Source of the DNA: Escherichia coli
GTDB lineage: Bacteria; Pseudomonadota; Gammaproteobacteria; Enterobacterales; Enterobacteriaceae
Direction: 5' to 3' (one strand)
Length of the DNA stretch: 64,000 nt
Assembly (NCBI RefSeq): GCF_002854065.1
Contig: NZ_CP024152.1
A model generated the notes under the pieces. That model saw only the letters and a list, made by a program, of their open reading frames with translations, was not told the origin of the DNA and searched no databases. The position numbers and the translations under genes were made by a program. Shown in pieces: positions 14,999 to 62,199 of this stretch. Numbering within the stretch: position 1 is the first letter of the stretch; every line of letters starts with the position of its first letter.

Positions 14999-15702
14999 TG
15001 AAACCTGAAACAGAAATAGATGAAACCGGCAGCTTCGGTGAACCCGAAGAGAAACCCGCCCCCTTCTGGAAACGTTCCGTCTGGGGGATATCTGTAGCAA
15101 CATGGGGGTTATGTGCAATCGTGTTGCTCGCAGCCATATGGTATCTGTTCCTGAGAGCGCCATCGGAAACAGGCATGCCTCCGTTTAATGATGCGGATGC
15201 TGGCGTACAGACCTGGCAAACCACACAAGAATCATCACCTTCCGTTCAGTCCACTGAGACTATGACTGTCCGGACAGGAGAAGATATGAGCCAGCTTGCC
15301 CGGGATGTAAAAACAGAGCTGGATAACCGCGATGAAAAAATTCAGGCAACACTGAATATGCTTCACGACAGCATTAACAAGCTGGGCGAAGCTATAAAAA
15401 AGGATGAAGAATACGCACAGGAAACACGCCGTCAGCTGGATGATATCCGGAGCCGCCTGAACGGAATAATGACACAGAAAAGCGTCACTGAATCCTCTTC
15501 CACACCGCATCCAGCAAAGAAAAAAACGTCGTCTGTACTTAACGGAATGAAAATCATGTCGATGGAAACTGGTATGGCCTGGATTCGCTGGCAGGGTAGT
15601 ACCTGGGCTGTCAGAGAAGGTCAGACGCTGGGCAATGTGGTGATCCAGCGGATTGATCCGACTACCCGGACCATCATCACCAGTGCAGGGACGTTACGCT
15701 GA
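14998..15702 (+). CDS. traP: TraP (234 aa)
   Basis: TAATG overlap with traO; single TM segment then a coiled-coil region. Confidence 0.6.
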   Translation: MKPETEIDETGSFGEPEEKPAPFWKRSVWGISVATWGLCAIVLLAAIWYLFLRAPSETGMPPFNDADAGVQTWQTTQESSPSVQSTETMTVRTGEDMSQLARDVKTELDNRDEKIQATLNMLHDSINKLGEAIKKDEEYAQETRRQLDDIRSRLNGIMTQKSVTESSSTPHPAKKKTSSVLNGMKIMSMETGMAWIRWQGSTWAVREGQTLGNVVIQRIDPTTRTIITSAGTLR

Positions 15703-60291: not shown

Positions 60292-60859
60292 GGGTGACTC
60301 CTTTTTTCTTTTCCGGGCAGGGACGGTCATGCGATAACGTCATCCATCATCACTGCCCTTACCGTCACGCCGTCAGATAACATCATGCCGTTATCATCAT
60401 CACCATGATAACAAGCATCCATATAACCACGCCGTTAAATTACCGGAGAGCCGTTTCCGTCAGATCCGACTTTCCGAAATATCACAACTTTCCGGAAGTG
60501 TACCACGCTGAGAAAATCATCATATCGCTGTTTTCCGCCCCTGCGCGGCGCATCACAGGTCAGGGAGATGACACAACATATAGTGTCATCAGCAGCTGAA
60601 TTCAGCACTACATGTTGTGCTGACAGGAGGTGGCGTTATGTGGGGGAAGAGGAAGATCCGTCTCCGCCGGAAACCGGATCTGCGCGACGGGAAACGGGCA
60701 AGTGATATGATAATTGAGCAATACACACAAAATCATATCAGATATGATTTTCATCATTGATGATAAAACCATATATGATATTATCAGAAATCAGGAGCAC
60801 ACAAATCATGCGGGATATTATTTTTACCTGTCAGAACATTATCAGATGGAGCGTGCAGG

Positions 60860-61114
60860 ATGGATGAAGAAAGGGTGTTTTCACTCAGCTATGAGCAACT
60901 AACCCGAATAGCGGAAAAAAATATCCGTGAATGTGGGCTGGACAACCAGAGCGCCAGGTGTATCAGTGAACTGAAGGCCTCAGCTCTGCTGTGGTTGTGG
61001 TATGAACTGGCCATTCATGGTGCGCCACAGAACAATCACGCACAGGCCCGGGAACGCATCGATACCGATTATCAGCGCCTCAAAAAACTCATCTGGTCGG
61101 AGGGTGACAGTTAA
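60860..61114 (+). CDS. Hypothetical protein (84 aa)
   Basis: ORF translationally coupled (TAATG) to the downstream 196-aa gene. Confidence 0.35.
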   Translation: MDEERVFSLSYEQLTRIAEKNIRECGLDNQSARCISELKASALLWLWYELAIHGAPQNNHAQARERIDTDYQRLKKLIWSEGDS

Positions 61115-61704
61115 TGACTCAGAGCCGCCGACCGTCGCCACTGCAGCGGAGAGTGCTGATTGTGCTGGCTGCGCTTGATGAAAAACGGCCGGGCCCCGTG
61201 CTGACGCGGGACCTGGAACGGGTGCTGGAGCGAAGCGGGGAAGCCCCGGTCTACGGGCCAAACCTGCGCGCCTCCTGCCGTCGTCTGGAGGATGCCGGCT
61301 GGCTGCGTACCCTGCGCGCCCCGAACCTGCAGCTGGCAGTGGAGCTGACGGACGCCGGCCGGGCCGTGGCACAGCCTCTGCTGCTGGCAGAACAGGACCG
61401 CCTCCGGGCAGAACAGCGTGCGGCAGAAGTCGTCGTACTGCCGCTGGTCCCGGCAGCAGGTCTGCCCGCAGACGGCACTTCTGCCACTGATCTGGCGGTG
61501 GAGCTGAACGGCATAACGTATCAGGCCTGCCGCGGGGATTTTGTGGTGCGTCTCGACGGCAGCACCTGTCTGCAGTTATGGAATAAAGAAGGCAGGGTGG
61601 TACGCCGGGAGGGCGATCCGCTGGAAGTGGCGCAGTGGCTGCAGGCCTGTCATGACGCAGGAATAGAGGTTCGCGTACAGATAAATGAAAGTGCCGCTCC
61701 GTAA
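61114..61704 (+). CDS. GC-rich hypothetical protein with winged-helix-like N-terminus (196 aa)
   Basis: GGAGGG RBS; N-terminal RRVLIVLAALDEKRPGPVLTRDLERVLERSG resembles a wHTH; about 65% GC versus neighbours. Confidence 0.45.
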   Translation: MTQSRRPSPLQRRVLIVLAALDEKRPGPVLTRDLERVLERSGEAPVYGPNLRASCRRLEDAGWLRTLRAPNLQLAVELTDAGRAVAQPLLLAEQDRLRAEQRAAEVVVLPLVPAAGLPADGTSATDLAVELNGITYQACRGDFVVRLDGSTCLQLWNKEGRVVRREGDPLEVAQWLQACHDAGIEVRVQINESAAP

Positions 61705-61723
61705 GAACACGCCTGTGCACGGT

Positions 61724-62071
61724 TTACACATCATCCCATGGTGGCAGCCGGTTAACTTTCCTGCGCCACCAGTGGAAAGAGGCCATGCACAGTCCGAACA
61801 AAAAACCACCCGTGATACTTATAATAATGGCCTCACCTGCCACCATTCCTGACGGCCCCCAGTAGGTAAACCACATTACACATCCCCAGGAAATGCCCCA
61901 TAAGCCCCCCGTCAGCACCGTGACCTGCCAGAACGGCATAAAGGGTAATGGCGGAAGCCGGATACCCAGCCGCCATAGAATACGCAGAAGAGGAGGGGCA
62001 TAATTGCTCCGCCACATCTTTTTGCTGTCCATCAGGGCAATGGCCCGGGCTTTTTTCTGCTCAAAGGTCAC
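61724..62071 (-). CDS. Hypothetical integral membrane protein (115 aa)
   Basis: Three predicted TM helices, Trp-rich; adjacent to the colicin immunity gene. Confidence 0.4.
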   Translation of the reverse strand: MTFEQKKARAIALMDSKKMWRSNYAPPLLRILWRLGIRLPPLPFMPFWQVTVLTGGLWGISWGCVMWFTYWGPSGMVAGEAIIISITGGFLFGLCMASFHWWRRKVNRLPPWDDV

Positions 62072-62199
62072 AGGAGCACCTCCGTTCCATGATGTAAACG
62101 TGACACAGCTTATTGTTATTGATTATTATTATCATGCTGTGGTTATGTTGTCATGCATCAGTACACTGACAAAAGTGCAAAAGAAAGGAAAACTGGCAG

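Follow-up and report, generated by a model that had tools for sequence, protein, structure and literature searches.

The ydfA-ydeA locus

We analysed a 64,000-nucleotide (64-kb) stretch of Escherichia coli contig NZ_CP024152.1 (here called the window), and we describe a small two-gene locus, ydfA-ydeA, together with the AT-rich palindromic region in front of it. The window is the backbone of an IncI-complex, colicin Ia-type conjugative plasmid, and over positions 60300-61800 it matches plasmid pWP2-W18-CRE-03_2 of E. coli (typed IncI-gamma/K1) with 100% identity. ydfA (60860..61114, plus strand) encodes an 84-amino-acid (aa) acidic protein (pI 5.3) and ydeA (61114..61704, plus strand) encodes a 196-aa protein; the gene names are taken from one record, and in RefSeq both products are hypothetical. 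The two open reading frames proposed in a first-pass annotation of this DNA hold to the exact coordinates 60860-61114 and 61114-61704; they overlap by 1 base (TAATG), and a GGAGG is present about 11 nt upstream of the ydeA ATG. The gene pair is real and translationally coupled, and a sigma-70-type promoter-like site precedes it. The same annotation described the operon as GC-rich, which is true of ydeA (65.3% GC, in the top 0.4% of 591-nt windows) but not of ydfA (50.2% GC), which equals the average of the window. The palindrome cluster (60700-60850) has 29.8% GC and falls in the bottom 0.13% of 150-nt windows.

Palindromic sites overlap the predicted ydfA promoter

The promoter-like site (60757..60784, plus strand) has a –35 element, TTGATG, at 60757-62, a 16-nt spacer and an extended –10 element, TG-A-TATTAT, at 60776-84, and transcription is predicted to start near 60791, 69 nt before the ydfA ATG. 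In the homologous operon of pUA1135, the start predicted by BProm is at the same position, 69 nt upstream of the ydfA ATG, and reverse transcription PCR showed that ydfA, ydeA, ibfA and a proQ-like gene are co-transcribed (PMC12111858). Transcripts of ydfA and ydeA were also detected for pS88 (PMC3438092).

Around this promoter we found a repeat unit, AATCATA-N5-TATGATT, that is present as three sites 36-37 bp apart, plus an extra upstream half-site. O1 (AAAATCATATC-A-GATATGATTTT, 60729..60751) is a perfect palindrome centred at 60740, about –51 from the predicted start. The 17-mer ATCATATCAGATATGAT at 60732-60748, one of the palindromes noticed in the first-pass annotation, lies within it and extends to a perfect 11+1+11 palindrome, AAAATCATATCAGATATGATTTT, at 60729-60751. 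O1 is the longest perfect palindrome of the 64 kb, and its length was reached by 0.15% of 2000 local dinucleotide shuffles and by 2 of 40 shuffles of the whole window. O2 (AACCATATA-T-GATATTATC, 60767..60785; centre 60776, about –15) is a degenerate unit that lies over the –10 element, and its left arm is weak in this plasmid (direct-repeat copy at 68%). O3 (AAATCATG-CGGGA-TATTATTT, 60803..60823; centre 60813, about +22) lies in the transcribed leader and has two mismatches. The upstream half-site is a box, GATATGATAAT (60703..60713, plus strand), that contains TATGATA and, together with the left arm of O1, makes up a perfect inverted repeat of 9 nt. The other pair of elements noticed in the first pass, TGATAA (60761-66) and TTATCA (60781-86), is present as well, within an imperfect inverted repeat with arms of 23 nt. 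When we allowed up to two mismatches, AATCATA-N5-TATGATT matched twice in the 64 kb, at O1 and at O3, where 0.16 matches are expected.

The arms of the putative operators are conserved and follow the ydeA winged helix

The palindromes, ydfA and ydeA are shared as one module, which starts near 60654 and can be followed down to about 72% DNA identity in IncI, IncK and IncF plasmids of Escherichia, Salmonella, Shigella, Klebsiella and Citrobacter. Its left edge is an rfsF-like core, AGATCCG-N14-CGGATCT (60654..60681), a perfect inverted repeat that is found once in the window and is followed by a nearly invariant box, GCGCG(A/G)CGGGAAAC, that reaches to 60698. To quantify conservation, we aligned 15 distinct diverged upstream regions and scored each element by its majority fraction. 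The operator arms, the upstream box and the extended –10 element score 0.87-0.96, as compared to 0.58-0.79 for the operator centres and the spacers between elements. The O1 arms score 0.95 and 0.91 and the O1 centre 0.58; the O3 arms score 0.87 and 0.96, and the upstream box and the extended –10 element score 0.95 each. The leader sequence ACATTATCAGATGGAGCGTGCAGG (60835..60859, plus strand), which holds the Shine-Dalgarno sequence GGAG at 60848-60851, is nearly invariant (0.91), as are the right arm of the rfsF-like core and the GC box after it in 15 loci. In most other plasmids O3 reads AAATCATACATGATATGATTT, and a full O2 palindrome, AATCATATCTGATATGAT(A/G), is present in two loci (L011 and L025), 37 bp from O3. 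Both O1 and O3 were detected in nine loci, counting the window, and in every one of these they lie exactly 73 bp apart. Over the 242 kb of the window and the fetched loci, a looser unit, AATCAT-N7-ATGATT with at most one mismatch, is confined to ydfA promoters save for two 1-mismatch matches. A regulon that spans the plasmid was considered and rejected: beyond this promoter the 64 kb contain no further operator unit, and we read the two 1-mismatch matches, which lie in other loci, as chance.

In the Klebsiella copies of YdeA, which keep their operators, the N-terminal domain is still 82% identical but the C-terminal domain only 48%. Upstream of ydeA homologues with 56-66% N-terminal identity and no detectable ydfA, we found two to three exact 7-mer half-sites within 200 nt, where 0.04-0.1 are expected. 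In three loci (L029, L030 and L031) the TATGATT that corresponds to the upstream box precedes AATCATA by the same 24 nt, and L030 carries a 19-mer identical to the O1 core upstream of its ydeA homologue, in otherwise unrelated sequence. Because half-sites precede ydeA homologues that have no ydfA, the motif travels with the ydeA winged helix and not with ydfA. In the four loci whose homologues have 16-35% N-terminal identity, we found no such inverted repeats, and a stray half-site 7-mer in one of the four. We had considered operator covariation in these most distant homologues, which have no ydfA, and dropped it; with no such palindromes the comparison is uninformative.

YdeA has a predicted MarR-like winged helix

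The AlphaFold2 model of YdeA (42-sequence alignment; predicted local distance difference test score, pLDDT, 87.9) is made up of a winged helix that is predicted to be MarR-like (residues 9-78, nt 61138-61347), a long helix (residues 80-104, nt 61351-61425), an Ala/Pro-rich linker (residues 105-126) that is poorly conserved and deleted in some copies, and a compact β-rich acidic C-terminal domain (residues 127-190, nt 61492-61683). The model has the three helices and the β-hairpin wing of the MarR-type winged helix-turn-helix fold, in agreement with the winged-helix-like N-terminus that the first-pass annotation saw in the second gene. A Foldseek search with the model matched MarR-family structures, DNA complexes among them, and the N-terminal half is basic (pI 10.5). 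From their placement in this monomer model, the helices at residues 9-24 and 80-104 could be MarR-type dimerisation helices. YdeA had no MarR match in Pfam or NCBIfam, and no MarR, MarR_2 or related hidden Markov model scored above its curated threshold; one distant homologue matched MarR_2 with E = 0.016 (15.8 bits, as compared to a cut-off of 27). Among other collections, YdeA matched a PHROG of unknown function (2e-7), and PADLOC gave a stray JetA match over the winged-helix region (E = 0.004). Residues 105-196 had no Pfam match, and a profile of the C-terminal domain returned nothing from the PDB sequences.

YdfA is predicted to form a three-helix bundle (pLDDT 88.8) and is a possible modulator of YdeA. 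It had no match in Pfam, PADLOC or PHROGs and an NCBIfam match far below cutoff, and the fold search found generic or designed helical bundles only. The YdeA family is narrow, with 221 representatives in 1.84 billion clusters; many of these are fragments, those named by organism are Enterobacterales, and homologues from phages are essentially absent.

Some plasmids carry a long form of YdeA of 390-430 aa (L011, 3948-5201; L024, 1933-3144; P0123, P0127 and P0131), in which a conserved extra C-terminal segment of about 220 aa has no family match. In Citrobacter the long-form ydeA is followed by a DpdC-like (DUF6884) gene and an SNase gene. We rejected a fusion link between this extension and a 164-aa protein encoded downstream in Klebsiella, since the two have no similarity.

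A proposed model in which YdeA represses its own promoter

Taken together, these data make it fairly probable that ydfA-ydeA is an autoregulated transcription-factor cassette in which YdeA acts on its own promoter through the palindromes, and the sequence data are consistent with YdeA binding a palindromic operator there, as MarR-family repressors do. In this model, YdeA dimers would bind O1, O2 and O3, probably cooperatively, and bound YdeA would repress the ydfA-ydeA promoter; we propose repression as the sign of control because O2 covers the –10 element and O3 is at +22. Repression would set the level of ydfA-ydeA and of any downstream genes on the same transcript, and read-through would reach the anti-phage gene ibfA (HEC-04) in R64-type plasmids and a cluster with an Hha-family gene in Klebsiella IncF plasmids. 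The C-terminal domain of YdeA and YdfA may modulate binding as a sensor, an oligomeriser or a partner, which is the least supported step of the model. Of the two functions offered in the first-pass annotation, a regulatory one is supported by palindromes that overlap the promoter, have conserved arms and variable spacers and travel with a winged-helix gene. A replication-related one finds no footing: iteron-type direct repeats and a Rep gene are both absent from the module, and the matches of the YdeA winged helix to ORC/Cdc6 are generic.

Several observations weigh against autoregulation by YdeA. YdeA is below all curated family thresholds (the best matches are AbiEi_4, E = 0.031, and PaaX, E = 0.08), and fold and sequence searches with YdfA and with the C-terminal domain of YdeA were uninformative on their roles. 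O2 and O3 are degenerate in this particular plasmid, and one intermediate homologue (L028) has no motif. The TATGAT half-site resembles a –10 hexamer, and therefore part of its conservation could reflect promoter elements. Finally, ydfA mRNA fell under iron chelation in pS88, which is unexplained (PMC3438092).

The last two points also bear on an alternative that we consider unlikely, in which a host factor such as Fur binds the palindromes, or these are stacked AT-rich promoter elements, and YdeA acts elsewhere. The hexamers resemble GATAAT/TATAAT, promoter-like sites are present on both strands, and, for Fur, the neighbouring colicin Ia is iron-regulated and ydfA mRNA responded to the chelator. 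However, iron chelation lowered ydfA mRNA rather than raising it (PMC3438092), and the best match of the ydfA promoter to GATAATGATAATCATTATC is 12/19, a score equalled or exceeded by 91 sites in the window; a 7-1-7 Fur model found no match of at least 11/14 within 60700-60850. We therefore rejected the palindromes as Fur boxes, as their best match is at background level. Either reading would also have to account for conserved arms of 9-10 nt that are inverted and at fixed spacing, one site being downstream of the start, and for half-sites that recur upstream of ydeA homologues in unrelated sequence. The leader offers another reading of O3, which could form a 7-bp A-U hairpin followed by a U-run, next to a highly conserved leader sequence, as in an attenuator or in a hairpin that masks the ribosome-binding site. 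We rejected an RNA element here, and regard it as hardly credible: the leader folds no better than shuffled sequences (z = +1.14), the consensus structure has –2.3 kcal/mol and no compensatory pairs, and there was neither an Rfam match nor a terminator-like site.

Two further explanations assign YdeA a different task. It is quite unlikely, in our view, that the palindromes form a centromere-like or architectural array on which YdeA serves as a single-protein segregation or positioning factor (StbA-like or pSK1 Par-like) or as an accessory to ResD/rfsF. The even spacing of 36-37 bp, the position of the sites directly beside the rfsF-like core and a YdeA homologue on a 4.3-kb Rep_3 contig would fit such an array; but the array coincides with the promoter, an NTPase partner is absent, and the plasmid already carries ParA and ParM systems. 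F, moreover, has rfsF and no ydfA-ydeA on that side, and ResD/rfsF is therefore independent of these genes. We consider it very unlikely that ydfA-ydeA is a toxin-antitoxin or abortive-infection pair, with YdeA as an AbiEi-like antitoxin, YdfA or another partner as the toxin, and the palindromes serving conditional autoregulation. The pair does have the layout of a type II toxin-antitoxin system (two small, translationally coupled genes behind a palindromic promoter), YdeA has its weak AbiEi_4 match, and in several plasmids the pair is found among defence and toxin-antitoxin genes. However, Pfam, NCBIfam, PADLOC and PHROGs gave neither protein a significant match to a toxin or antitoxin, the fold of YdfA is a generic helical bundle, and an AbiEii (DUF1814) nucleotidyltransferase is absent nearby and in all fetched loci. 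Nor do the genes behave as dependent partners: ydfA is intact in a locus where IS26 cuts ydeA (L023), ydeA homologues occur without ydfA, and Tn21-type insertions in ydfA have been reported.

The module begins at an rfsF-like site and borders a defence island

On the minus strand, the neighbouring genes are parM/parR-like genes, yegA, yefA (ParA-like) and resD-yedA, followed by a 529-bp intergenic region that contains the rfsF-like core. Past this region are ydfA-ydeA, ybaA (DUF6404), which is convergent, and then imm and cia. We found that F carries AGATCCG-N14-CGGATCT between pifC and ccdA-resD, where 0.01 copies are expected, and that the homology between F and the window (225 bp at 81%) stops inside the spacer of the repeat; homology to ColIb-P9, R64-type and Klebsiella plasmids also breaks within this 14-nt spacer. 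In ColIb-P9 a perfect copy starts at nt 15,610 of the record, which is the published rfsF boundary, and the published work puts there both rfsF and the point at which Col-type and Delta-type gene sets change over (PMC8004404). The repeat agrees with rfsF in its published position, as seen in ColIb-P9, and in lying beside the resD operon in F and IncI plasmids, and AGATCCG-N14-CGGATCT is very probably the rfsF core. With an rfsF-like ResD site as its start, the cassette falls on the exchangeable side of the multimer-resolution locus.

Two such sites are present in ColIb-P9 and in pV408. ColIb-P9 has a second, degenerate copy adjoining ydfA, and the two copies bracket 3.5 kb of cargo. In pV408 (R64-type) the repeat adjoins the resD operon and about 9.5 kb lie between its two sites, with a CBASS cyclase and a four-transmembrane (4TM) effector, a PDC-S64-like gene, VapBC and PDC-S06 in between and ibfA/HEC-04 downstream of ydeA. 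In the window and in L021 the single site has a hybrid spacer, which is what a crossover inside the spacer would leave, and in this ColIa-type plasmid there is no cargo downstream of ydeA, the next gene being the convergent ybaA. The defence island that the module borders is variable, and in this plasmid it is empty. The breaks of homology in the spacer, the hybrid spacers and the paired sites with cargo between them suggest ResD-mediated cassette exchange. In the fetched loci, sites of this kind are located in L013 (3052-3079 and 6611-6638), L020 (2923-2950), L027 (4822-4849) and L031 (about 2345-2372).

The first-pass annotation took the compositional contrast of the operon as a sign of separate acquisition. 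This is partly right, in that the module lies on the exchangeable side of rfsF and is present in IncI, IncK and IncF plasmids of several genera. The palindromes, however, have been inherited together with both genes as a single unit, and the contrast in GC is by itself not sufficient to show that ydeA was acquired apart from ydfA. Homology searches did identify a very common plasmid gene pair, which half bears out the doubt that these might be ordinary backbone genes, but the pair remains linked to its palindromes.

A broader proposal, which we regard as doubtful, is that YdfA-YdeA is a sensor-regulator that gates anti-phage cargo (IbfA/HEC-04) on infection or plasmid entry, with rfsF and the rfsF-like site at the ydfA edge acting together as a ResD-driven, integron-like platform that loads and unloads CBASS, PDC-S06 and DUF4238/Abi on IncI and IncF plasmids; the window would then be the empty, recombined state.

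We made several further observations on the two sides of the rfsF-like site. The cargo between paired rfsF-like sites is mostly defence genes (CBASS, PDC-S06, VapBC and DUF4238). We had considered ybaA/DUF6404 as the "ibfA" of ColIb-P9, which was wrong; the ColIb-P9 gene is in the 3.5-kb insertion that is absent from the window. In the yedA-proximal half of the intergenic region (60331-60653) there are repeated GATAAC/GCCGTTA-type motifs and two core-like inverted repeats, GATGACAC-N8-GTGTCATC at 60567-60590 and TCAGCACTACA/TGTTGTGCTGA at 60602-60623, and both core-like repeats fall within 60438-60653, where conservation with the sequence beside rfsF in F is 81%. Judging by sequence and position, the repeats of 60331-60653 are probably ResD-binding or accessory sequences together with the yedA-resD promoter. 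In Klebsiella IncF plasmids (L003, L005, L006, L007, L022 and L025), ydfA-ydeA heads a same-strand cluster that encodes a conserved 164-aa protein, annotated as "DNA-binding" but without a family match, a Hha-domain protein, small unknown proteins and a DUF1778/GNAT toxin-antitoxin pair; this cluster may be a plasmid silencing module under the ydfA promoter.

Comparison with known regulators

The MarR, HxlR and PadR repressors (MarR-marO, MepR, QsrR) are winged-helix proteins, as YdeA is predicted to be; YdeA matches no MarR, HxlR or PadR model and, unlike these repressors, has an extra linker, a β-rich acidic C-terminal domain and a co-translated YdfA. AbiEi of the type IV abiE system is, like YdeA, a protein of about 200 aa with an N-terminal winged helix and a C-terminal domain, and it binds paired inverted repeats in its own promoter cooperatively, resulting in negative autoregulation. 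In contrast to AbiEi, YdeA has no adjacent AbiEii (DUF1814), and its AbiEi_4 match reaches 14.8 bits, as compared to a cut-off of 25.

The pifCAB operon of F (PifC-pifO) is similar in its placement. Like ydfA-ydeA, it reads away from rfsF, opposite the resD operon; the distance from the repeat to the start of the gene is 162 nt for pifC in F and 179 nt for ydfA in the window, and pifA follows pifC in F as ibfA follows ydfA-ydeA in R64-type plasmids. PifC is annotated as a repressor in the F record; it is an autorepressor, and pifA is a phage-exclusion gene. The proteins themselves are unrelated, however, as PifC has 362 aa and differs from YdeA in operator sequence and domain content.

The WYL-type regulators BrxR and CapW resemble YdeA in having a winged helix and a C-terminal putative sensor domain, and both they and ydfA-ydeA are found at the head or border of defence genes (for ydfA-ydeA, at the head in R64-type plasmids) with palindromic operators, putative ones in ydfA-ydeA, at their own promoter. 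In YdeA, however, we detected no WYL or WCX domain, and its link to defence is by neighbourhood and by co-transcription with ibfA, the latter in R64-type plasmids only and not in the window. DtxR/IdeR proteins have the same order of parts as YdeA (a winged helix, a helical segment, a flexible Pro-rich linker and a small β-domain), but the N-terminal profile matches are non-significant (E 0.05-1).

Distribution of the pair and its place in the literature

In PLSDB, more than 5,000 plasmids match part of 60300-61800, and at least 2,659 carry at least 80% of the promoter and ydfA. Among the carriers are resistance and virulence plasmids of the IncI, IncK and IncF groups from E. coli, Salmonella, Shigella and Klebsiella. 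In the literature that we searched, we found no paper that assigns a function to plasmid ydfA or ydeA, and the genes are known by name only. An IncK2 genome-wide association study reads plasmid "ydeA" as an L-arabinose exporter (PMC12987596), and another paper lists "ydeA, ydfA" as an active transporter (PMC8477403). Plasmid ydeA and ydfA are unrelated to chromosomal ydeA, which encodes an arabinose exporter of the major facilitator superfamily, and these transporter labels are possibly mis-assignments that arose through a collision of names.

A winged-helix autoregulator is in itself an ordinary mechanism. What is unusual is the very wide spread of this pair, its position at the border of a defence island, and the fact that no relatives can be recognised for YdfA or for the C-terminal domain of YdeA, so that to learn what they do would add something new. 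With an operator, a promoter and a probable regulator to work on, the pair is cheap to approach by experiment. In R64-type plasmids it heads the anti-phage operon of ibfA, and it marks the border of the variable region, anchored at rfsF, in which defence systems are exchanged between plasmids.

Other features of the window

A 246-aa Arg/Pro/Ala-rich open reading frame runs antisense through ydeA (60980-61720, minus strand); it is the usual artefact of 65% GC and unlikely to be a gene. The best Fur-box-like site of the window is at 62115-62133, in the ybaA/imm intergenic region, and scores 16/19 to the consensus and 13/14 in the 7-1-7 model. Both of the strongest promoter-like sites, which lie on opposite strands, overlap it. 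In pS88, ybaA was about 5-fold up with an iron chelator, which was not significant (p = 0.197; PMC3438092). We also found six further perfect palindromes with 9-nt arms and loops of at most 3 nt, at window positions 1254, 10030, 37870, 39868, 49383 and 54994; when each combination of centre and loop is counted, there are eight such palindromes including O1 (counted twice), as compared to about 0.9 in shuffled sequences.

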